From NCBI GenBank assembly GCA_010093605.1, contig MU004182.1:777032-841031 (forward strand): a stretch of DNA of 64,000 nucleotides, written 5' to 3'. This DNA is from Lophium mytilinum. Lineage: Eukaryota. Each line of letters starts with the position of its first letter. Positions within the stretch are counted from its first letter, which is position 1. The notes under the pieces are model-generated. The model had not been told where the DNA came from. It was given only the letters and a program-made list of their open reading frames with translations, and made no database searches. The translations under genes were made by a program, and so were the position numbers. Below, piece by piece: positions 34,173 through 47,173 of the stretch.

Positions 34173-36463
34173 CTACCAGCTCTCCCACTTCTGCCCACCA
34201 AGCGCTATGAGCCGATTGAACAGCTCGTCCCTCAACGGGCAAGCAGTGATCCTCCACGTATCACCCTTGCGATCCACAATTTCCAATCCATCCGCGACCT
34301 CCCTATCAAGCGCCCAGCCCACTACCAGCTTCGCCTTCCATCCAAACCCGCCAATCTTCTTGAGCTCTTTGATATCGCCCACGGGAATGCTCCATACAGC
34401 ATGCAGATCCTCTCGATCTACACTACCGATCTTCTCAATACTCGAGTCACCCGAGAATGCCACGCAAGGGATTGTGGCCTTGGTGCTGATGTACGTATGA
34501 CCCTTGTTGCCCTTATAGCGGCACTTGAAATCAACAGGTCCGGAAATCTTCGGCACATTTGGCTTGGGAATCACTCCTAAGCGGTTCTTTGCGTGACCAG
34601 AGCCAGCTTTGGCTTTCAGCCTGTCTGCGCCGATGCTGGTCTCGACGGCAGCTTTGGCGGTAGACTTGAAGAAGCCGAGAACGCGGCTGCCCTTTTTGCC
34701 GTGCTTGGTGTTCTTGGAGGCATCGATGTCAGTGCCGCCGGTTTCGTGTGCCGTGGTCGGATCGTGAGACATGGCGTCGTCAAGTTCTTCTTGAGTCGCA
34801 TTCAAAGGCCAATCAGCGCCAGTAGCTCGGAGATGCTCGTCGCTCAGGTTAGCGGGTTGGTCTGGAGGGGCAGTAGCGGTTTGAGGCGGTGGGGGAAGAG
34901 GAGCTTTGTTTGCTTCGCCGATGCGGAGGAGGGTGAGAGTTAACTGAGCATTCGTGGGGACGCCTTTGAGAATTGTACTGAAAGCCGTTAGCATCCTAGA
35001 TTGAAGGTCGAGGTTAGACCCAAAACTCACTTTCTAATCTCCAACAGCTTCTTCCAGTTAGGGAACTTTCGGTTGAGAATCTCCAAGCCGCGAGATGTAA
35101 TGGGGTCACCGAAGAATCCGAAACCAGCGCCAAAGGTGACGCCCTTCATAAACATATATGAGTTCACGAAGATAGATATGAGAAACACAGGTACGATGAG
35201 GGCTGCTAGCCGAAGTCTGTGTGTTTCACGGGGAAACGGTGGTGTAGGAGAGAGAGCACTATGCGGAAGTCAGTGATATACAGTCACTGAAAGCTCATGG
35301 CACTTACTTGGCGAAACGCTCCCAAGTATCCGTGGCATCTGCAATCCCATGCATAATAGGTCTCATCTTCGTCCACATAGCTGTTTCCATTGGAACCTTA
35401 GTCTTGTCGTGCTTGTCAGTGGGTGTAGCTCCGGCCGCTTTGTCCTTGGCGTCGGCTGCTCCAATAGCGATGGCAGTCGGGTCAGGGATCGAACTGCTAG
35501 GTGAATCCTCATCACCCCGTGGTTCGCCCTGGGGGTGTTTGCCCGTGGCGCTGCTCAAAGCTACCGATGCAATTCCATTGACGAAGTTGCTCGCCTCAGC
35601 TTCAACTGCTTCGCCTTTGTGGTTCTCAGCTGCTCCGGTTGCGCTATCATGGCTTCCTAAAACACCGGCCTTAGGCTTTTGTACGCCACCAGAACTGCTC
35701 ACAAGCGCTAAGGGAGCTGGAGGAAACAGGATGGCGCGGCAGGGTGGGTATGCGATCAGTGCGATTATGGTGAGGGAGAACAACGGTACGAGACAATCGA
35801 GTAGCCATGCAGCAAAGTAGGCCTGAGGATGTTAGCGCTTACCGGTTGCTGTGAACATGGTGCTTGCTCACTGTGCAGAACCAGGCTGTTCTTCGCGTCT
35901 CGCGCCATGAACGAAGTCGAACGATCTGCTTGCCGAAGCCCATAAGGCCAATGATCTACTTCCATGAGTTACAGTCCTATGTCTACTTCTCATGGTAGCT
36001 TACTATAGTCATGTATAATCGCTCCACGTTGCTTCTAAGCTTGTCTGGGGAGAACTCCTCCTCGTCTGCGATGTTGAGGTCCAGACCTCCTGGAACGGCA
36101 TATGGGTACTCCTTGACATGATACATTTGCTTCAAGGAAGGTCAGCCAACACTCCATATCCCCGTTGGTGTTTCTTACCTTATCGAACCTTCGAATCAAG
36201 ACCCAAAGCTCGTCATTTGGAAGTCCCCCAACAAGTGGACTAGCCACAGCGTGCTGCGGTTCGTTCCACCCTAGATCCACGACCTCCTGGTCATGCTCTA
36301 CCTGGGCTGCACCCTTCTCCTCGTGGTCAGCCATAGCAAGAGCATGGCTTTCTGTCGGTTGATCTCGAAGAGTGTGGGAAAGGTCCTTGTTTTCCGGTGT
36401 CTCTGCGACTGACGTCTCCTTCGGGATAGGAAGCAGGTCCTTGTATACGACGCCGCCTGACAT
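34173..36463 (-). CDS. DUF3292-type membrane protein
   Basis: Multi-exon gene. Conserved-looking segments VVDLGWN, LVGGLPNDELWVLIRRFDK|QMYHVK, GGLDLNIADEEEFSPDKLRSNVERLY and C-terminal RDELFNRLIALGGQKWESW. Confidence 0.8.
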
Positions 36464-37685
36464 GATGAACTGATTTGGTGTTGAGTTTTCAGAGGGCAGA
36501 AACAGGGAGGGTTGTTCTTCCTGTGCCTCTTTATCATGAAAGATCGGCGGTGGTGCATCTGTGAAATGGCAGCCACCGAGTGGCCATGACGTCAGCCACT
36601 GTGGGACGCGAACGCAACAAGCTAAACCTACTAAAACCTTGGAACAAACAGCGAGAGCCCAATGTTACAAATGCAGCATTGCAAAAGAGTCTTTTGAAGA
36701 GCCTAATGACAGCAGACGAAATGAAATTAGATTGTCTCATGTGAAGTAGAAGGATAGAGGACCCCTCACCCACCAAGAATCCCAATATGCATGGAATGAC
36801 AAGGAAGGTCCTTACCAAACCCAGAAAGCAATATCGCCTGGCTGATCAGCCCTGGGGATCCTGTAGTTGCGCATTGATGGCTACCAGACAGTAAGGATCC
36901 CAGGTTCGATCATGATCCTAATCGACATCTTGCCGTCACGAATCATCAGAGACGGCTGAAGAACAGTCTATTCTCGAGCTAACGCCCTCCATATTGCTTG
37001 AATAGTTAGTTTCTTACTAGTGCGTACGTAGATGCGATATAGAGGCGTTTATGGCCCGCCAAACTACCACTATAGGCGGTCTAACGACATTTAGCCCCAT
37101 ATATTACATCACGTGACTTGTTCCCATGCAGTTAGCGCCGTATCCCCTGTTTATAAGCAAATCAGCCGCTCTCAGGTTACATTGTCACAGCTGTCACCTC
37201 TCAGGATGCTCAGCTTCAACTCACTTCTTTGTCCAACGCCATTAGACAGTCCCAATCCCCACACAAGAACTATCCTTGTCAAGACTTGGGTGAAGGATAT
37301 GCGAAAGACAGTTATTACAACTTAGACTTGGGGACCTATAAAGTCCACCTCAAATCAGACTTCAAGCTCTATGGTCACATCACTATGATCCTAATGCAGA
37401 ACTGCCACGCCTTAATCCACGTACGATCACTTTTCCCTTCTTGTTTAGGAACGTAAGTTGCTCCTGCTCTAGCCTGAGCTGTGGTTGAGGTGAGCGGAGC
37501 TTGAGTCGATACTGGCGTTCCGGTTCCGTGGCTCGGATGCAGCACCTACTGTTGATCCGAGCTACTCCTCACTTCTAACAATACTACGAAGCCATCGTGT
37601 GACATGTAATTTCAAGTTCTCTTAACTGTCTTATACAGCGTTAAATCCACGGATTTCGTATCGAACTCATATTCTATCAAAAATA

Positions 37686-38209
37686 ATGGCTTCTGCAGCA
37701 GTAGAAAAACATAAATACGTCAAACTCTCAGTCTACCTGAAACGCCTGCCTGACTGCACCGACGAAAAGTTCCATAGTTACTGGGCTGGGAATCATGCTC
37801 AAGTAGCAATGGAACATGATGTCTTTAGGAAACACGTCCGCAGGTACAACCAAGTACGCAACCGCATTATCCCCCGAATCACCACAAACACCCTGTTGAA
37901 GCTAAATTGAACCAATAGTATCACATCCCTCCAGAGCTGAAAGCTGCAGCGGCAGCAACTGGCCTACCGACGCTTGATTTTGATGGCGTGGCAGAGATCT
38001 GGGTTGATAGTTTAGAGGGCTGGAAAGAAGTCCAGAACAATGTTGATTTTGTGAAGGCAATAGCTGGTGAGTTTTGATTCCCTCTTTTTGACAATAGCGA
38101 GAGATGCTAAAGATTTGTCGAAGCCGACGAAACGCATTTCTTGGCGCAAGATCGAGCGATACTGATTGGGTACGATAATTTGATCATCGGAAAGGAGGTT
38201 TTGTCGTAG
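37686..38209 (+). CDS. EthD-like dimeric alpha/beta barrel protein (133 aa)
   Basis: Exons 37686-37853, 37919-38066 and 38124-38209 sum to 402 nt. Motifs LKRLPDCTDEKFHSYWAGNH, RRYNQYH, FDGVAEIW and DETHF. Confidence 0.85.
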
Positions 38210-38411
38210 TTTGGTAGGATAAAATGACGCCGACTTCCTTTTCGCTGCTCTGCTCGACCCATGAGAACTTCAATATGCTCAAGCCAACTGTCGCTATCCA
38301 ACGTTTGCACTCCCAAACTCATTGAGCCATGTTAGTTAGGCGGTGAGGCTTATCTACCACGTCTATGCCGTGTATAGGTGACCCTCCACGCTACTACACA
38401 AGACTTCTGTC

Positions 38412-41400
38412 TCACGCCCCACCAAACAGCCTCTTCAAGCCTCGCCTACGTTTCCGCGGCTTTCCGACAAGACTGAGACGTGTTGCGTATTCAAACAGCT
38501 CCTTCAACCCCTCGCCTGTCTTGGCCGAAATCTCCATATACCTCTTTGCCTCGATCTTCTTGCAGACATCCTCCGCCTCTTCTCGCGTTACGGGATGCTG
38601 GCCTATTTTGCGCAAGTCCTCAATCTCTTTCGGGTCATTGACTACATCCTTGTAGTTGCCGACTAGGATGTACGGTACTCCAGGAAGGAAATGGAGGATT
38701 TCGCTAATCCACTTTGGTACCTGTCAGCCTTCCCGAACAGCTTGATGAAGAGCGTTCTAGTCTGTCTACGTACTTTCTCTTGAATATTATCAAGTGAGTC
38801 TGGGTTCACCAAACTGAACATTATGAGCACGACGTGCGTGCCGGGATATCCAAGTGGTCGGAGGCGGTCGTAGTCTTCTTGGCCCATTGTGTCCCACATA
38901 GAGACCTCGACGGCTCTGCCGTCCACTTCGACGGTGCTTACGTGTATGTCCCAGTTATAGGTTATGCCGCCGCCGAAATCCTTGATGATATTAGCTTGAG
39001 ATCCAGTGGAAATGGCTGCGGGGGATATCATACGTCAGGGACTCGGCCACGTGATTGATGGCTGTGAAAGGTCCAGTGAGTACGTTATTGGAGCGGAAAA
39101 TCTACAGGCGGCGAGGGCTTACACTAGTAGCATTGTTTTACCGGCGCATCCATCCCCTACAACGACTAGTTTACGGCTATGTTTTGGTAGCAATGACGAA
39201 GGAGCAGTCGTTGGCGGTGTTTCAGTCTGATCCCGTGCCGGTGATGCGACTTGAGCGGCTCCTGAAGCGGCTGTAGAGGGGTGGGGATTTGACCGTTTGA
39301 TCTCCGCTTGTTCTGCGGCTACGATTCGAGGTATATCATCAAGAGATAAGGCGCCCACTGTGAAAGTGTCTCCTTCGATTACGAAAATTGACTCTCCGGG
39401 GGGTGCTGTCCCGTCAATCTTACCCAGCGGCGCTTTTAGCAGAGGTAAGCGAGCTGTGGTATCAGGAAAGCTGTCGGGACCAGGGTTGTCCATGCGCTCT
39501 CCATGGAGTTGGTTAGCTTCATCCTTGTGCGCGTTAGCTTTGGTGAAAATGGTAGCAACACCGAAACCGTCGTTTGTGTGCTGGTCTCCAGTCAAAGCGG
39601 TAAGCTCTTCGTTATCAGGAATCCTAAGTCCCAAATCGTGAGTGCTGAAATCGAAAAGCTGCTCTGATACCCTGTCTGGACCAACATCATTACGAGTCGC
39701 TTGGACAGGGTGCATTTTGGTGTTCAGAAGCGGTGAAGGAGATCCAGGAGTAGTAGAACTCCTTTTGATTATCGGACTGCCCAGATCCTGTAGCCGTCAA
39801 CAGTATTCATTCCATTTATTTCGTGCATCACAAACCTGGTTGGAATCTTGAATGTTTTCGCGCTTCATACTGTCCGAGTTGAGCAATTTAATACTAGTAT
39901 CATGCTCCGGTGGAACAGCCTGAACATTTTGATCAACGCAACCCTTATGAATTGCACCATCAAGGCCGAGCTGAGAATCACTCGCATCGGCTTTTGCGTC
40001 ATTGGAGTCTTTCAGAGTTTCGGCCGGGACTTCAATAAGTGATGCATCATCAACGTCGTCCACAACAGTGTCACTTTGCCGAATCTGAGAACTCAGCTCG
40101 GAGGGCGAGTCTTTGCCGCCTCCATTCCACTTCTTGCCAATTGGTTTTCGACGCAACGACCCCTCCGGCACCAGTGAGGCAGAGATCGACTCAGGAGTTG
40201 ATGGACTTGTGCGAGGAACGTTATTTGCTCGTGGATTCATCTCTGTCTTATCTGTGTTTGGCGTACTGGGTTCAACTGGAAGTAGCGGAGAACTAGCCTC
40301 CGCCATTCTCTCTTGATAATCAGAGAGCATCACCGCATATGCTTCCTCTTCATCGGCCTTTCCATCGGCTTTGCAGATCTCCACCAGTAGAATCAAGGTT
40401 CTCTCAAAGCCCTCATGACCCTGTGGGCCGAGTCTCTTGTAGCCTTTGAGTGCTTGGCGAGCATAGAGATGGCACGCAATATAATCGGACTTTTGGAACA
40501 AGACGGTTACTAGAGTTGACAGATCATTCAATGCTGCTTCGCCTTTCTTGCTTTCCTGTCTTGCAGACAATTTCTCCATCAGAAGCGATTCCGCTTCATC
40601 CCATCGTTCCAATCGGAGGTATGATTCGCATAGAAGCCCGGTGACTTCATCTTTTGACACACCACCTTTCGCTTTCCGTTGCCAGGTCGTTGCTGGAATG
40701 GCATTTATCCTGTTTAGGCAGTTCTTTAGAAGGCGTTCCGTAGCATCATAGTCTCTCTTATGGAAGGTCGCTCTGCCGCGTTTGAAAAGACCCATGGTCA
40801 ACTCTGTTTCGAGATCCGAGTCTGAATCCGATTCAGAGTTATGTGCTGCTGTTGGTTTACCAGGAGGCTGTGATTCAAACGCTGGGTTGGGAGGGATAGA
40901 CGCAGACGATTGAGACTCAGTCTGATCATCCTCGTTGATTACGTTCGATGAAATCCATTTGAGCATTGACTCGCTGGGCTCTGAAGGGAAGCAATCGCCA
41001 TACTCGGAGCCGCAGAAAGAAGATGCATCATCGACATTTTCTCTACCCAGGATGGTCGACGCTGTCGACATGATCGTAGCAGAGGAGCGGACACAATTCC
41101 TTAGATTACCGAACACTTCGATTTGCCTTTGGCTAGAACCGTCGACGACTGCTGAGGCGAGTTTGCGGATTTGATCGTTCAGATCAGTCGCGATTCGGCG
41201 AACGTCTCGTTGAAGCTCGTCTAGATTAGGAAGAAGGCGGTCGGTCGATTCTTGAAGAGTAACTTGATTCCATCTTATTTGCTGTCAGTATCTTTTCCAT
41301 CTCCTAGTTCACGTCCGTAGGAATACCAACAGAATCATGGTCTGAAGAGAGAGCTGCAAAGCATCCTTGTAAGCCTGGACCTGCTTCCTGAAAACCTCGA

Positions 41401-41770
41401 TTTGACTAGTTGCTATTTTCAATCTCATATGTTTGCGTGGCCCATCTAAAATTTTGACCTCTTTGTTGACTCCCTGAAGCAGTACTCGCAGCTCTTCCAT
41501 TGTAGTTTGCGCGTCTTGAAGTGATTGATTAAGATTCTTCCAATGAGTACCAACGTGGCCCGTAGCTGGGGGTTGCTTTCCCACTTGCTCAAACGTTTCT
41601 TTCATAGACTCCAAAACTCGGACCAGACTTTCGACTTCGTAGAGCATGCCACTGACGGTGCTGTTGACTGCTACGACTCCATCGCGAAAAGCACGCAGCT
41701 CTAGCGTTACCGTGTAACAGGCACCTACTAGAGCAACCACGCCAGTGGTGATGCTGAGAGGATCGGGCAT
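38412..41770 (-). CDS. Multidomain protein (~1025 aa): HeLo-like/STAND N-terminal domain + TPR-like helices + disordered linker + C-terminal divergent Rho1-like GTPase domain
   Basis: Exons 41770-41331, 41273-39836, 39787-39123, 39061-39034, 38980-38774 and 38711-38412. All introns are GT-AG with plausible branch points, and the phases give one continuous frame. N-terminus [18 protein letters not shown]; Rho motifs [41 protein letters not shown] and [10 protein letters not shown]. Confidence 0.8.
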
Positions 41771-42226
41771 GTTCACAAGCAGAGGACTCTGTTAACGTGG
41801 CTGGAATATATATGTTGGGATTAGGATGAGGCAACGAGGCTGAACTACGAGCATATTGACACAGAGCCTGGAAACTGTAAAGGGAACAGACGTGCAATCA
41901 TTTCGTGGCCATGAGAAGAAAATAGGAGAAGAATGCCGCCGCGTCTCGCATTGACAAGGTGTTCGTACTGCATATACGTATGGTTGTATGGAGTTCAGAT
42001 CGCTCCAGAGCTGAAGCCTTCACCTAGGCTGCGGGGCATCATTCACGTGACCGCTTGATAGCATTGGCTGTGCATGGGGCGGCATTTAAGACGGCCGCTA
42101 GGCAGCAATCAGTATAGCTGTCTCCTTTAAATCCACCATCCGCCTTAGACGTACCTCTACACCTTTCTCCTTCGCCTTTTTTGTGTTGATAAGAAGCGAG
42201 TCCACCGTGTCTATCAGTCTTTGATC

Positions 42227-44128
42227 ATGCGCAGTCAGCAAAAACGTCGCAGAAGTGACAGTCTGTCTGAACCCGAGACACGTAGAAAAGCGCCCGGGAG
42301 GGAAGCCTCCTGCAACGAACTAGCAGCCTTGCCAAATGGATCTTATCGAGTAGATATAAATCTTCGTTCCCAGTTGAAGCCAGAACGAAACAATCCGAAT
42401 CCGCGAAGCTATTGGGAAAAGTTCTCCGAGAGCATATGCGATGATGAGGATCAGGATGAAGAAGATCCATATGAGAGCGATGTCGATATGGATTCGTTAG
42501 ACGATAGTTCGGGCTATGATTCTGAGTACGACGAGTTATCCCGCTTCAAATGGCTTGAGCAGATGGATGGCAAGGTGCTTTGGACATCCCCAGATGGTCT
42601 TGAAACTACGACCATCGGCCAATGCAGCGGTGAGCTGATCAGCCGTCCGGCAATTCGACACATATTCCATGAAGAAATGGACGGGCCAAGTACCGAGATC
42701 TCGAGTCTCGGTTTTGGCCTATTTGATCGGTATGGCCGGCTCAAGCCTGAGTTCAAAACCCATTCTGTCAAGAAAGGATCCGGCGTATGGCAAGATGAAC
42801 TTGATAGCGGAGACATCTTACTCATCAATGTTCTACACGTAAAACTCTCGCATCGACGTCGCGGACTCGGGCGCAAAATGTTTGTGGAGCTGTTTGAGAA
42901 AGCGCGGAAGAAAACCGTCGGTAGCTTCTTCGCGATCGTGCAACCGGGTTATCTTACCCGCGAGAGCGACGAGGAGATGGGAGATGTTTCAGGCGAAGAG
43001 AGAAAAGCATTCTACCATCAAGCAGAGGATGCCGCATGCCACTTCTGGCGACAGCTCGGCTTCCGCCGGATTGGTTCATCCATTTGGTTCGGGTTTGCAA
43101 GTAAACCTGATCATGCCTGCCACAGCCTGTTAGCGAGCGATGACTACGACCCACCAAGCCCAGCATATACACCAGATCCAATAAACGAAGCCATACGAAG
43201 TACCATCTCCAAGACAGGGGATGACGAATGTGTTGAACACTTGAGACTACGAGAAGTGGCATCCGGAGATCCACGCTGGCGGGCAATAGATGATAAGGGT
43301 AACACATTCCTTCACATTGCCGTCACCGCATGCAAACCAAAAACTCTGAAATGGATCTTGCAGCAGAACTCTGACTCCGATTTACTCGATTTCCGCAACG
43401 GCGATGGGCTTACTCCACTTGAGGTACTCCTGGAACTTCTTGAAGTCAAGAGGACCAGAGGCTCCTTTTTTAGAGGCAAGCCATGGTCAGACGAGTTCGA
43501 TGGGTTTAGTCCTGCGGCTGTGGAGTGCTTGTCGCTTCTAAAAGGCATCACGCAGGACATCGAAAAGTTACGCCTTATGTACGGATGCACCTGTGGGATC
43601 TGTATAGGAGGGTTTCTCAGCCCTCGCATGTCGTTCGCATTGCTTTGCCAGGCCGAGATAAATCACGACATGCTCAGGTCATCCATTAACGATTTCACAA
43701 GTACAGGCTTAGAATTCGTCCAATACAACCAGGACGACCTTCAATTTCTTCAGCCTTCAGTCCGTGCAAGCTTAGCCAGGAACCAGCCCATGCGAGAGGG
43801 GTTCATCAACTTCTTTGATCACTTTGCTACGTGCATTCGTAGCAAGATGCTACCGACCGAGCCGTTCGTAATGCGGGCAATGCAAAATAGCAATGAGCAG
43901 CCGCCAGTGTCGCAGAACTTCCTCGAAAGAGGTGGGACCATTTACTCGATTGGATCAGTTATCTTTAAGAAAGCAATGGAACAAGATATGTGGGCTGGGG
44001 ATGGCGAGCACTGGAGTGATTTTGAAGATGATATCCGAAAACTGCCCTACTGCAGGAATGACCACGAATTTGCCTTCGTGAGTGGCATGTGCGGCTTCAA
44101 GCGAGTCTCTAGGATGAGATATGTGTAG
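42227..44128 (+). CDS. GNAT-fold acetyltransferase-like domain + ankyrin-like repeats + Cys-containing C-terminal domain
   Basis: Single exon. GNAT-like motif A VKLSHRRRGLGRKM and motif B FWRQLGFRRIG; ankyrin-like DDKGNTFLHIA and NGDGLTPLE; GCTCGICIGGFLSPRM. Confidence 0.8.
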   Translation: MRSQQKRRRSDSLSEPETRRKAPGREASCNELAALPNGSYRVDINLRSQLKPERNNPNPRSYWEKFSESICDDEDQDEEDPYESDVDMDSLDDSSGYDSEYDELSRFKWLEQMDGKVLWTSPDGLETTTIGQCSGELISRPAIRHIFHEEMDGPSTEISSLGFGLFDRYGRLKPEFKTHSVKKGSGVWQDELDSGDILLINVLHVKLSHRRRGLGRKMFVELFEKARKKTVGSFFAIVQPGYLTRESDEEMGDVSGEERKAFYHQAEDAACHFWRQLGFRRIGSSIWFGFASKPDHACHSLLASDDYDPPSPAYTPDPINEAIRSTISKTGDDECVEHLRLREVASGDPRWRAIDDKGNTFLHIAVTACKPKTLKWILQQNSDSDLLDFRNGDGLTPLEVLLELLEVKRTRGSFFRGKPWSDEFDGFSPAAVECLSLLKGITQDIEKLRLMYGCTCGICIGGFLSPRMSFALLCQAEINHDMLRSSINDFTSTGLEFVQYNQDDLQFLQPSVRASLARNQPMREGFINFFDHFATCIRSKMLPTEPFVMRAMQNSNEQPPVSQNFLERGGTIYSIGSVIFKKAMEQDMWAGDGEHWSDFEDDIRKLPYCRNDHEFAFVSGMCGFKRVSRMRYV

Positions 44129-44858
44129 GATGCGAACCTGGGTGGCAGTGCCCAAATCATCCTGTCTCATAGAGGGCGCGATACGTTGTGTATCAGGTCG
44201 ATTGGACGAACCTATCAATGTCGATTGAAAATCAATCACAAAACTATTGTAGTCCGGGTTGGTTCCGAATTCTCCGTTCAAGCTTCATCTATGTTCATAA
44301 TTACCTGAGTTTTTTCACACTTTGCTGTTCGGCTCATCATCCAATCCCACTTCAGAAATGAACTCTTAGAGTCTACATTCCGTTTTGCTTTTTCCACTAC
44401 ACATCTCATTCTCAAACTAGTCAGGTTGTAAAAACATGATCTCACTTAGAGTGCTCACTTTTTACTCAATCTTTTATCCCAACTCTGTTAGCTAGCCTAA
44501 TCATAATACACAAGGAACTATCCTTATTACAAAGTGCAGCCAAATCTAAGCGAGATACGTTGGCTGAGATTTTTTAGTATATGATCCAGAACACGGACAA
44601 TCATGCAGAGCCTCAAAACTAGATTTTTCGTCTGGCGGGACGTTCAAATGTCTCGAAAGTCTATGGAAACAACTAGTCACGTGACCATACCCTACACCAT
44701 CTCAACAGATAAATCGGGCCACAAGCAGCCAGTTATGATCAGCTCATTTCAGCATTACCGCCCTATACAAACACCGCCTGGGTATGAACAACACCACGCT
44801 TCCAATAATCTACACAACCGCAACACCCTGAACACCAGCACACCGTTCCCATGAACAC

Positions 44859-47173
44859 TTACTCGCTATCCAAGTTCTCATCCGGAACACTCCACTTCTT
44901 CTTCCCCAAGATCCGCTGTTTCTTGCTCGGACTCCTCCCCTGGACCTCCCTCTCCAACAACTCCAGCTTCCTCTTCAACCCCTCGTTCTCTCTCTCCAAC
45001 TCATCCACCCTCACTTCGCCCTCCGCCTCGCCCTCTTCGTCTTCATGGACCTCAATCCCCTTGACCAGCACTTCAATCTTGCGATCGAAGTGCTCATCAG
45101 CGCGATCCGCCTCCTCATCCCACGCACCCTTCCACCGCCGCCGCTCTGCATCCATACGCTCTTCCATCTCAGCGAAGCACTCGTCTCTGATCTCCTGCTC
45201 TAGGGCGGTCATGCGCTCTTCGGCTGCCCGCCAACACTCCTCGGCATGTAGCCTCCTCTCCCTCTCGTCGTCAAGCTGCATAGCTAGGATGTCGGCTTCC
45301 TCGGTGAGTCGCGCAACCTCCTGCGTCGCCTGTTCGAGCTCTTCCCAAGAGACTGTAGGCGAGGAGCGCCCGCTGGAGAGCGTCGATTTGCCGCCTGCGG
45401 TTGTTCCGGATAGGATAGTGCTGCTGACGGATGGAATGCGCGGCACAGTGATTTCCCGCGCAAGTGCTGAGTAGCGGAGGATTTGGGAGGTGGCGTTGAA
45501 GTCGCCCACCGGGTCTGCTGTTACAATCATGATTGCTTTCTGCGGATTACGGTGCGACGAGTTCTGTTGGTGATGGTGGCTTGTGGCGGATGGGAACGAG
45601 TTGGAGAAGAGGAGTTCGGTGAGTTTGCATTGCCGGAATGGGACGATATTTTGCTGTCCAAGATTAGGTCATAGTCAAGACACGTGAAATAAATGATCAT
45701 ACCTTGTTCCCTTCCTGGTTGTCGTTCTGCATCTGCATGCACTGTCCCAGATACATGAGACTCTCATTAATCTTTCCAGCTTCTGCCAACGTAGCACCCG
45801 CGGTCTTTGCGTTTCTCGCGCGCTCGGAACCTGCGAGGTCCACAATGGTGAGTGTGCTGCCTCTCCAAGAGCCACGGCCTGACCGGTCCCGCTTCTTGAC
45901 TTCCACGCAGAAGAAGCCATGACTCCGCGAGCTGACGGCATTGCTACCCGTTCCAGCGACCCTCCTTTCATGCAGACCCGTTTCCAGCACCATGAGTGCT
46001 TCGTCCAGACTACCGCAGATGATCTTCCGGAGGCCGGCCACAACCTTCCTGTCCGGACTCTGCTCCGTGCTCTTGAACAAAAGCGCTCGCCGCTTCTGCT
46101 GACCATTCTTACTGTTCGTGCCGGATCCTGACAAGAGATCGAAGATGCGGTCGTTGTACACCTCATACATAGATATAACGATGGCGTACTCTGCGTTCGG
46201 GTCCGCCGGTACTTCAACCTCCTGGACGCTTGGAGTCTGTGGTAGCGCAGAGGGGCGGGGGATGTTTCGTGATCGGGTCGTGGTAGGGCCTATGAAGGAG
46301 CTGTACTCCTTTGGGATGTGTGAGCTTCTTGATGTGCTGCGAGTTACGCTCGCGAATCCGCCTGTGACAGGTCGGATGCTTGCGTGCGCAGGATTGACAG
46401 AAATTGGGGTTGAAGGCCCATTGCTAGGCCCGATATATACATTGTTACGGAGAGAGGGATAGAGATTACGGGATGAGTGATGGGAAGGAGTTTGGAGAGG
46501 TGCAGTAGTAGAGGAGCGGGGGGTATTATAGTCTCTCGTAGGAGAATTGGGGCATACAGGCATAGGAGTTTGAGCTCTAGAGTTGAAGCCACGCTCGGAT
46601 TGGTTGTCGCCATAGTGTGAGTCTAAGAAGGCCGACGCGGTAAAGAGCTGGGCTTCGGACGCATCTGTAGCTGCAAGGGATGGTACGGCATTGGAGCCAT
46701 ACGTAGGTTGGACGATCTGCGACTCGGTGCTCTGGAAGAGTAGGCCCAGCGCCATTTGAGTGAGACCGCGTTGTGATTTCGTGCCCAAGATGGTGTGGCT
46801 CTGGTAAAACAGTCAGCATTTCTTCCCTTTCCTTCTATTCCAGGTGACATGCCTTTCCAGAGCCGGTCACTCCTAGTGTAGCAAGCAGTCCATCGCGCCC
46901 ATGGCTCCCGTCCGCAGCCAGCACGCCCTCGATCAGAGGCACCACTCCAGTGCCCTTGAAGATATCCAACTGCTTGGCATGCTCCTCGAACACTTGAGTA
47001 AACGCAAACTTCTCGACTGCGCGCTTGCGGTGGTCCGTTGGAGGCGGCTTGATGGTGATGTGGGTCCCGTCGTCTTGGACGTCGAGAAATCGCTCTGCGC
47101 CGACGGCATTGGAGGGACGCAACCGTAGGTAGACTTCGAACAGCGAATTCGAAGGCTTAGGAGGAGGTTCCAT
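44859..47173 (-). CDS. Kinesin motor protein (kinesin-6/Klp9-like)
   Basis: Motifs FEVYLRLRP, P-loop GVTGSGK|S across intron 46801-46852, MYEVYNDRIFDLL, NAVSSRSH, VDLAGSER, INESLMYLG and VPFRQCKLTELL; coiled-coil tail. A further intron lies at about 45654-45702. Confidence 0.9.

Follow-up and report, generated by a model that had tools for sequence, protein, structure and literature searches.

A single gene joins HeLo-like, TPR and Rho1-type modules

On the minus strand of a 64,000-nucleotide (nt) stretch of Lophium mytilinum contig MU004182.1, at positions 38412–41770, is one expressed six-exon gene for a 1025-amino-acid (aa) protein, in which a HeLo-like N-terminal domain, a tetratricopeptide repeat (TPR) block, a low-complexity linker and a Rho1-type GTPase domain follow one another. 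The whole stretch is referred to here as the window, the gene as the window copy, and all coordinates are positions within the window. The coding sequence is spread over five open stretches of the minus strand (41309–41791, 39797–41284, 39119–39796, 38663–39034 and 38412–38723), and an earlier reading of the letters (here the sequence-only reading) had joined these through five introns and a micro-exon into a candidate immune receptor. Removal of the five introns, all of them GT..AG in a spliced-frame check, leaves 3078 nt (1025 codons and a stop) free of internal stop codons, running from an ATG at 41770 to a stop codon at 38412–38414.

Transcript evidence comes from Logan contigs of the public run X1, labelled 'RNA?' by guess, mapped onto positions 36000–45000. 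A single 4529-nt contig spans 37195–42004 with no differing letter and omits 62, 53, 61, 48 and 57 nt exactly at the predicted introns, each of which reads CT..AC on the plus strand. Retained between two of the joints is the 28-nt micro-exon (39034–39061), and the contig is fully accounted for by 234 nt upstream, 3078 nt of coding sequence and 1217 nt downstream. As the contig of a neighbouring gene skips a 49-nt CT..AC intron (36130–36178), X1 behaves as a transcriptome. The proposed gene model is thus exact to the base in this contig, including the 48-nt intron at 39788–39835, for which a check in RNA had been suggested, and its frame stays open for 1025 aa. Contigs carry no information on strand, transcript ends or minor isoforms, and that the joined form is the sole form of the transcript cannot be read from them.

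Upstream of the ATG, the contig reaches 42004, giving a 5′ untranslated stretch at 41771–42004 (minus strand, as are all exons and introns of the gene); the ATG at 41770 is the first in frame after a stop. Exon 1 (41331–41770) encodes aa 1–146 plus 2 nt, comprising the HeLo-like (PigL_N) region and a hydrophobic first helix. After intron 1 (41274–41330, 57 nt), skipped in the contig with the frame kept, exon 2 (39836–41273, aa 147–626) supplies the end of the PigL_N region, a helical core, an acidic SDSDSD patch, the TPR block and the start of the linker, and contains the part conserved in the family. Intron 2 (39788–39835, 48 nt) is followed by exon 3 (39123–39787, aa 627–847), assigned by composition to the low-complexity linker and ending in strand β1 and the P-loop of the Rho domain. 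Intron 3 (39062–39122, 61 nt) separates this from exon 4, the micro-exon (aa 848–857), with which a rebuilt switch I begins; beyond intron 4 (38981–39033, 53 nt), exon 5 (38774–38980, aa 858–926) completes switch I and adds strands β2 and β3 and switch II. Exon 6 (38412–38711, aa 927–1025 and the stop), reached across intron 5 (38712–38773, 62 nt), encodes helix α3, the G4 motif NYKD, the Rho insert, the G5 motif SAK, helix α5 and a basic tail. Introns 2 to 5 are likewise skipped in the contig.

An old family across Pezizomycotina

An exhaustive search of 1.84 billion representatives returned 423 proteins at E ≤ 1e-3, 123 of them at E ≤ 1e-30. Among longer proteins, an exon 2 query found five relatives, including a 1051-aa protein of Lachnellula arida that is named 'GTP-binding protein rhoA' and carries both PF17111 and Ras, and an 879-aa Mollisiaceae protein with Ras. 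Rho-bearing members were found in Saxophila, Fusarium (solani complex), Cladosporium, Elasticomyces, Exserohilum, Alternaria, Zasmidium, Hyaloscypha, Cladophialophora, Aspergillus and Cladobotryum, and belong to Leotiomycetes, Sordariomycetes, Dothideomycetes and Eurotiomycetes. The window copy is a member of an old, Pezizomycotina-wide family.

The arrangement is also present in metagenomes, where 14 loci of close relatives were found with a 12-row alignment. A same-strand Rho domain follows the core in seven of the eight loci having at least 2 kb downstream of it (four of five distinct sequences), namely the near-identical L004–L007 and L008, L009 and L012; it was not found at L011, where 1.5 kb lies downstream of the core. 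At L004, L009 and L012 the core and the Rho P-loop share a single uninterrupted open reading frame (ORF), whose end lies directly after GK[T], and L008 has, like the window, two same-frame ORFs parted by one stop. With uninterrupted ORFs across the junction in three distinct relatives, the fusion is encoded in the DNA itself, independently of splicing. Gene structure recurs as well: the ORFs of L004, L009 and L012 and the proteins P0004 and P0005 all end after GK[T], as expected from the intron that stands just after G1 in the window copy, and a break after aa 146 is present in all 13 metagenome loci holding both parts.

These data bear on the alternative that two genes were wrongly joined, one of them HeLo-like/TPR with its end near 39797 and the other an independent Rho gene. 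Intron 2 holds an in-frame TGA, and translation of unspliced RNA would terminate after 638 aa, giving a HeLo-like/TPR protein without Rho; the gene is split in some public annotations (for example, 191 aa annotated as 'Rho GTPase' in Exserohilum, and a model of 625 aa in Fusarium solani); and a contig is no proof of a single transcript. Against this, the 48-nt intron is removed in the contig exactly at GT..AG and in frame, relatives cross the junction in one ORF, a CAAX box occurs in none of 24 family Rho heads, and the arrangement recurs in four fungal classes. No contig retaining intron 2 was seen in X1, contigs being prone to drop rare variants. The two-gene artefact is close to refuted.

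Several members differ from the window copy downstream of the core. In place of Rho, locus L002 (8516–9204) has tandem repeats of about 33 aa of the type EHVASTxDQAxxRRSRRxISPPSNILEKxxF. P0097 (Elasticomyces elasticus, 1262 aa) has two tandem C-terminal Rho-like domains. By eye, Cys/His patterns resembling a UBZ-type zinc finger stand in the linker before the Rho P-loop of P0004 and P0005, and P0002 and P0132 end in UBA or UBA-like domains, with a Pfam UBA match for P0132 only; the UBZ-like and UBA-like stretches may be ubiquitin-binding modules of the family.

The N-terminal HeLo-like domain

HeLo and HELL domains are fungal kin of the killer domain of MLKL and of the CC/RPW8 killer domains of plants. 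Exon 1 alone matches Pfam PF17111 (PigL_N, formerly Helo_like_N) with 33.3 bits against a cut-off of 27.2 (E 4e-8; profile positions 2–135 of 209), and the same family is matched in 22 of 25 relatives at E ≤ 0.01, bearing out the HeLo-like N-terminus that had been proposed from the letters. The first helix, aa 5–23, exceeds every other 19-mer of the protein in hydrophobicity (Kyte–Doolittle 1.74), and in seven relatives the same N-terminal place scores 1.26–1.82.

According to portions of two reviews (PMC9815663, PMC12881547), the Helo_like_N profile aligns with the MLKL executioner domain, membrane targeting by HeLo and HELL domains runs through the extreme N-terminal helix, and some HELL domains are carried by kinase or pseudokinase proteins, as in MLKL. 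The homology of the N-domain to MLKL is taken here from a portion of that literature (PMC9815663) and not from a test within this analysis.

The TPR block and linker

The TPR block (approximate borders 40304–40816) was located by combining Pfam with a family profile. Exon 2 alone reaches 23.3 bits against TPR_12 (exon-2 aa 213–279), below the cut-off of 30.1, whereas a profile of 25 members matches the kinesin light chain TPR in the Protein Data Bank (7ai4_A) with E 2.5e-15 over profile positions 311–453. On the strength of the latter match the block is real, and the TPRs named in the sequence-only reading are of kinesin-light-chain type. A p67phox TPR match of the family profile is weak (E 0.15) and is not counted as evidence for a TPR–Rho contact like that of p67phox with Rac; an Atlas feature search yielded nothing beyond generic TPR clusters at 0.90, a score attained by shuffled proteins in 4–10% of cases.

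The block is internal and short and lies within the conserved core, which extends from exon-2 aa 1 to about aa 330 in the exhaustive search; there is no C-terminal array of variable repeats. TPRs were described in the sequence-only reading as a common sensor repeat of fungal NLRs; here the block belongs to the core instead of forming a variable sensor. Beyond the core is a low-complexity linker of about 350 aa; exon 3, in which 61% of residues are disorder-promoting, has no Pfam match. As had been claimed, neither a NACHT nor an NB-ARC domain is present: no exon has a Pfam match to either, and a Walker A motif occurs just once in the whole protein, as GDGCAGKT at aa 837 in the Rho P-loop. No kinase Pfam match was found in the protein either.

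The Rho1-like head

The C-terminal domain is a G domain of the Rho1 type. Exons 5 and 6 match Ras (PF00071) with 51.7 and 39.2 bits; the best Protein Data Bank matches of exon 5 are fungal Rho1 (8etd_A, E 8.2e-23, aligned only from residue 11 on), and that of exon 6 is also Rho1 (6jik_A, E 6.9e-26). In a tree of 69 G domains every fused head falls on the Rho1/RhoA side, with a Shimodaira–Hasegawa-like approximate likelihood ratio (SH-aLRT) support of 98 against Rac/Cdc42, in agreement with the Rho1-type assignment made from sequence. The window head pairs with Fusarium P0015 (SH-aLRT 89) and is at most 58% identical to canonical Rho1. This tree resolves only Rho1/RhoA from Rac/Cdc42; it contains eight label changes for the fused heads, of which the starred branches force at least two.

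By pattern search and alignment to RhoA and Rho1, the G1 motif or P-loop of the window copy, GDGCAGKT, is intact and lies at aa 837–844 (39134–39157); G3 (DTMGQ) and G5 (SAK) are likewise intact, and G14, D59, G62, Q63 and D120 (RhoA numbering throughout) are kept. G4 is NYKD, with K118 replaced by Tyr and its Asp kept. Switch II is 80% identical to Rho1, and the region of the Rho insert helix is present and 53% identical to a Rho1. Switch I is rebuilt by a three-residue insertion and by the substitutions Y34F, T37G and N41I, as judged by alignment, leaving 13% identity to Rho1 compared with a family mean of 48%.

Across 20 family rows, the window copy included, the nucleotide-binding positions G12, K18, D120 and S160 are kept in all rows and D59 in 19; T37 and K118 are each kept in 15, and the catalytic positions G14 and Q63 each in only nine (lost in 11). 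With the former positions kept and G14 and Q63 often lost, nucleotide binding appears to be under constraint and GTP hydrolysis not. Rnd and RhoH are small, lipid-anchored, GTPase-deficient atypical Rho proteins, and many family heads are, like them, substituted at G14 or Q63, a pattern that suggests constitutive nucleotide loading rather than cycling in these heads; the window copy keeps both residues.

A CAAX box is absent from the window protein, which ends ...GLKRLFGGA, as from the other family heads. Instead, a basic stretch followed by [LM]F forms the C-terminal end of 12 of 20 non-redundant tails, the window's among them, and this basic stretch with R-L-F-G/S stands where Rho1 has its polybasic CAAX end. 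This conserved motif may serve for docking, or as an amphipathic end that binds membranes.

Two other identities were tried for the G domain and rejected. Big Ras GTPases (TBRG-1 of Trichoderma virens) are, like the window copy, large fungal proteins with a Ras-superfamily G domain, described in section 3.7 of a 2021 review (PMC8146680) as lacking G4, having Trp in G5 and being annotated as P-loop, AAA or IMAP proteins. The window head has the G4 Asp and SAK in G5 and is of Rho1 type; it is set apart from TBRG-1 by description only. Membership of ROCO was dismissed too, a Roc match of 27.1 bits merely overlapping the stronger Ras match, with no COR match.

Variable C-terminal heads on a constant chassis

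The N-terminal approximately 480 aa of the family are conserved and the C-terminal head varies. In a Pfam scan of 89 family proteins of at least 560 aa, of the kind called for in the sequence-only reading (HeLo-like with Ras or Rho), 20 have Ras/Rho heads, one of these with two tandem copies; WD40 heads were found in three, SH3 in two, and UBA, EH, MSP and RhoGAP in one each. NACHT or NB-ARC was found in none of the 89. The remaining proteins have no recognised head, and many of these are ORF calls cut at introns; for most non-Rho heads the support is a single cluster from assemblies of metagenomes or runs.

A tree of the core (142 rows) places Rho-bearing rows in nearly all major clades, with the window in a well-supported clade of six rows together with Fusarium P0015. 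Rho-bearing clades surround the EH and RhoGAP heads, the latter (P0087) lying within a Rho-rich one, and the UBA and MSP heads share one tight clade. From these sequences the pattern reads as an old Rho fusion with later swaps of the head. Most 'non-Rho' rows are incomplete ORF calls (P0019 is nearly identical to the Rho-bearing P0274), so the 22 changes of Rho label in this tree are not meaningful.

The survey bears on the proposal that the Rho domain replaces the switch of the signal transduction ATPases with numerous domains (STAND), that is, that it is a true GTP/GDP switch standing in for the nucleotide-binding oligomerization domain (NOD), with GTP loading and hydrolysis driving a conformational change or oligomerization that arms the N-domain. 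The window copy retains the P-loop, G14, D59, G62, Q63, D120 and SAK, and Rho is the only nucleotide-binding module of the protein, as such a switch would require. The proposal nevertheless fits the family poorly, and we consider it improbable: G14 and Q63 are gone from more than half of the heads; SH3, EH, MSP, UBA and WD40 domains, which bind no nucleotide, occupy the same position on the same chassis, as does RhoGAP in another paralogue; and in the window copy T37, which senses Mg2+ and the γ-phosphate, is lost by alignment and K118 is Tyr. Small GTPases are also not known to oligomerize in the manner of STAND NTPases. On sequence grounds, the family data favour an interchangeable, partner-binding head over a replacement NTPase switch.

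Proposed mode of action

Our preferred reading, to which we give a probability of roughly 40%, is an MLKL-like design in which a non-cycling, partner-binding Rho1-like head gates or places the HeLo-like N-domain; it rests on analogy. The first approximately 480 aa would form an effector chassis and the Rho1-like domain a signal-receiving head, following the plan of MLKL and HELLP, whose membrane-targeting helical-bundle domain is inactive until a C-terminal module receives a signal. Here the module would be a non-prenylated Rho1 look-alike that is loaded with nucleotide (G1, the Asp residues of G3 and G4, and G5 being kept) and is probably not a normal cycling switch. It would bind partners of the Rho1 pathway, whether guanine nucleotide exchange factors, GTPase-activating proteins, effectors or foreign proteins that seize Rho1, and such binding would position or release the N-terminal domain, upon which the first helix would enter the membrane. 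The outcome may be cell death, and the trigger could be self (cell-wall or cortex stress) or non-self. A RhoGAP head within a Rho-rich clade of the core tree is counted in favour of a link to Rho signalling.

Several observations weigh against this reading. The N-domain has no Protein Data Bank match, even at E ≤ 10 with the family profile, and PF17111 is currently named after a protein of a pigment cluster, so that belonging to it is no proof of killing activity. With G14 and Q63 in place, the window copy may hydrolyse GTP and act as a true switch, and with switch I changed (T37 lost by alignment, together with K118Y) even its binding of nucleotide or effectors is uncertain. The neighbourhood is ordinary (DUF3292, EthD, kinesin and pentatricopeptide repeat (PPR) genes), with no NOD-like receptor (NLR) or het cluster in it, and the age and wide spread of the family are as compatible with housekeeping as with immunity. 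The immune role put forward in the sequence-only reading is a hypothesis, neither shown nor excluded by these data.

The last points are equally those of a scaffold that is not lethal, in which a membrane-tethered atypical Rho has its CAAX lipid anchor replaced by the hydrophobic helix, with neither death nor immunity involved. The chassis would place a Rho1-like, SH3, EH, MSP, UBA or RhoGAP module at the cortex for polarity, endocytosis or cell-wall signalling. The absence of CAAX from all 24 heads, with the hydrophobic first helix nonetheless conserved, is what such tethering would predict, and the alternative heads named all come from the toolkit of polarity, endocytosis and membrane contact; the spread over four classes, the Rho head in nearly all clades of the core tree, the ordinary neighbours and the expression in an ordinary transcriptome run also agree with it. 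This reading is possible, although we think it somewhat unlikely: the characterised PF17111/HeLo relatives are described in portions of the literature as membrane-damaging executioners (PMC9815663, PMC12881547), decay of the catalytic residues in 11 of 20 heads would be unusual for a working signalling Rho, and WD40 heads like those of fungal NLRs are present too. The best non-self match is 45% identical, which would be low for a housekeeping protein; this figure is uncalibrated against the neighbouring genes, and no conclusion is drawn from it. If the scaffold reading is true, PF17111 domains have non-lethal uses, which bears on counting them as cell-death effectors in genome surveys.

The sequence-only reading had also cast the Rho domain as a decoy for Rho-modifying toxins. 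As an integrated decoy or guard, the Rho1-like head would bait bacterial or mycoparasite toxins and effectors that target Rho1, whereupon the HeLo-like domain would be freed and the attacked compartment killed. A constant chassis with swappable heads drawn from core host machinery resembles, by analogy, the integrated domains of plant NLRs; dispensable catalytic residues and the lack of CAAX are as expected for bait; and switch I is canonical in some relatives, for example P0095, P0236, P0250 and P0259. For the window copy the proposal is weak, as switch I is rebuilt, with Y34, T37 and N41 lost as targets, and Q63 is the only classical target residue left. The fusion is moreover ancient, with no sign of recent capture, and neither a NOD nor another known oligomerizer is present. 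We regard a decoy function as unlikely.

A broader form of the same idea, also doubtful, would make the family a NOD-less guard system, a HeLo-like executioner chassis equipped with baits from the cortex machinery (Rho1, RhoGAP, SH3, EH, MSP/VAP and UBA). Were this so, seizure of the bait by a bacterial or mycoparasite effector would free the N-terminal helix and kill the attacked hyphal compartment, and the family would correspond, in fungi, to pyrin-type Rho guarding and to the integrated-decoy NLRs of plants, while doing without a STAND NTPase.

Comparison with known systems

Known so far for HeLo and HELL domains is control through amyloid templating, through a NOD within the chain itself and, judging from annotation, through kinase-like domains. 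The window protein shares with the HELLP and HET-S executioners (HeLo and HELL) an N-terminal PF17111-type domain, a hydrophobic first helix, the absence of a NOD from the chain and a C-terminal part at which the activating signal is presumably received. It differs at the C-terminus, where it has a TPR block, a long linker and a Rho1-like G domain, and in having no adjoining NLR gene, whereas these executioners end, according to portions of the reviews (PMC9815663, PMC12881547), in a short motif that forms amyloid and for which a neighbouring NLR provides the template.

[quoted passage not shown] Fungal HeLo-like/TPR NLRs have the same type of N-terminal domain and the same TPR_10/TPR_12 (kinesin light chain) kind of TPR, but they possess a NACHT or NB-ARC domain, which the window protein and all 89 relatives scanned lack, and the TPR block here is short and conserved rather than a C-terminal array. 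Canonical Rho1 and RhoA share the P-loop, switch II, Rho insert and G5 with the window head, which differs from them in its site at the end of a 1025-aa protein, in the missing CAAX, in the three-residue insertion in switch I and in K118Y.

The claim that no characterised protein has the HeLo-like/TPR/Rho architecture stood up in the literature searched, in which no published account of it was found. A 2025 review of fungal regulated cell death (PMC12881547) contains neither 'GTPase' nor 'Rho', and the 2021 review of fungal small GTPases (PMC8146680) neither 'TPR' nor 'HeLo'. The architecture is nonetheless neither hidden, as the sequence-only reading had it, nor unique: no characterised relative was found, but predicted proteins from four ascomycete classes are already in public databases, with automatic names such as 'hypothetical', 'Helo-like-N domain-containing protein' and 'GTP-binding protein rhoA/Rho1'. 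The family appears never to have been studied, though its sequences sit there unremarked. A family combining a HeLo-like domain with a Rho1-derived G domain would add a further mode of control for such executioners, and would link regulated attack on membranes with the Rho1 pathway, by which polarity and the synthesis of the cell wall are governed.

Neighbouring genes

Convergent with the window copy is an EthD-like gene (37626–38210, plus strand), with PF07110 matches on the ORFs 37626–37910 and 37919–38077. The HeLo–Rho transcript contig crosses it unspliced, its post-stop stretch (37195–38411, minus strand) continuing 1.2 kb past the stop codon to 37195; this coverage is either a long 3′ untranslated region, antisense to EthD, or the product of an assembly that merged two overlapping transcripts. 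On the other side and divergent from the window copy is an intronless ORF of 659 aa (42149–44128, plus strand), which has its own contig (42175–44556); it has no Pfam match at E ≤ 0.001, and an acetyltransferase-like motif and ankyrin-like stretches are visible in it by eye only. At 34173–36664 on the minus strand is a DUF3292 gene of at least two exons (PF11696 at 375 and 69 bits), whose 49-nt intron is the one confirmed by the second transcript contig.

Rho1-like domains on other large proteins

Proteins of Tulasnella, Ceratobasidium and Mycena (Basidiomycete) and of Diversispora (Glomeromycete) combine a protein kinase domain with a Rho1-like domain; in other ascomycete proteins of 440–800 aa, the Rho1-like domain is preceded by a long N-terminal region that has no Pfam match. 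The large proteins with Rho1-like domains include P0199, P0242, P0245, P0246, P0266 and P0277, some of which could be gene-model fusions. The presence of a Rho1-derived domain on large proteins may be a theme found more widely in fungi.

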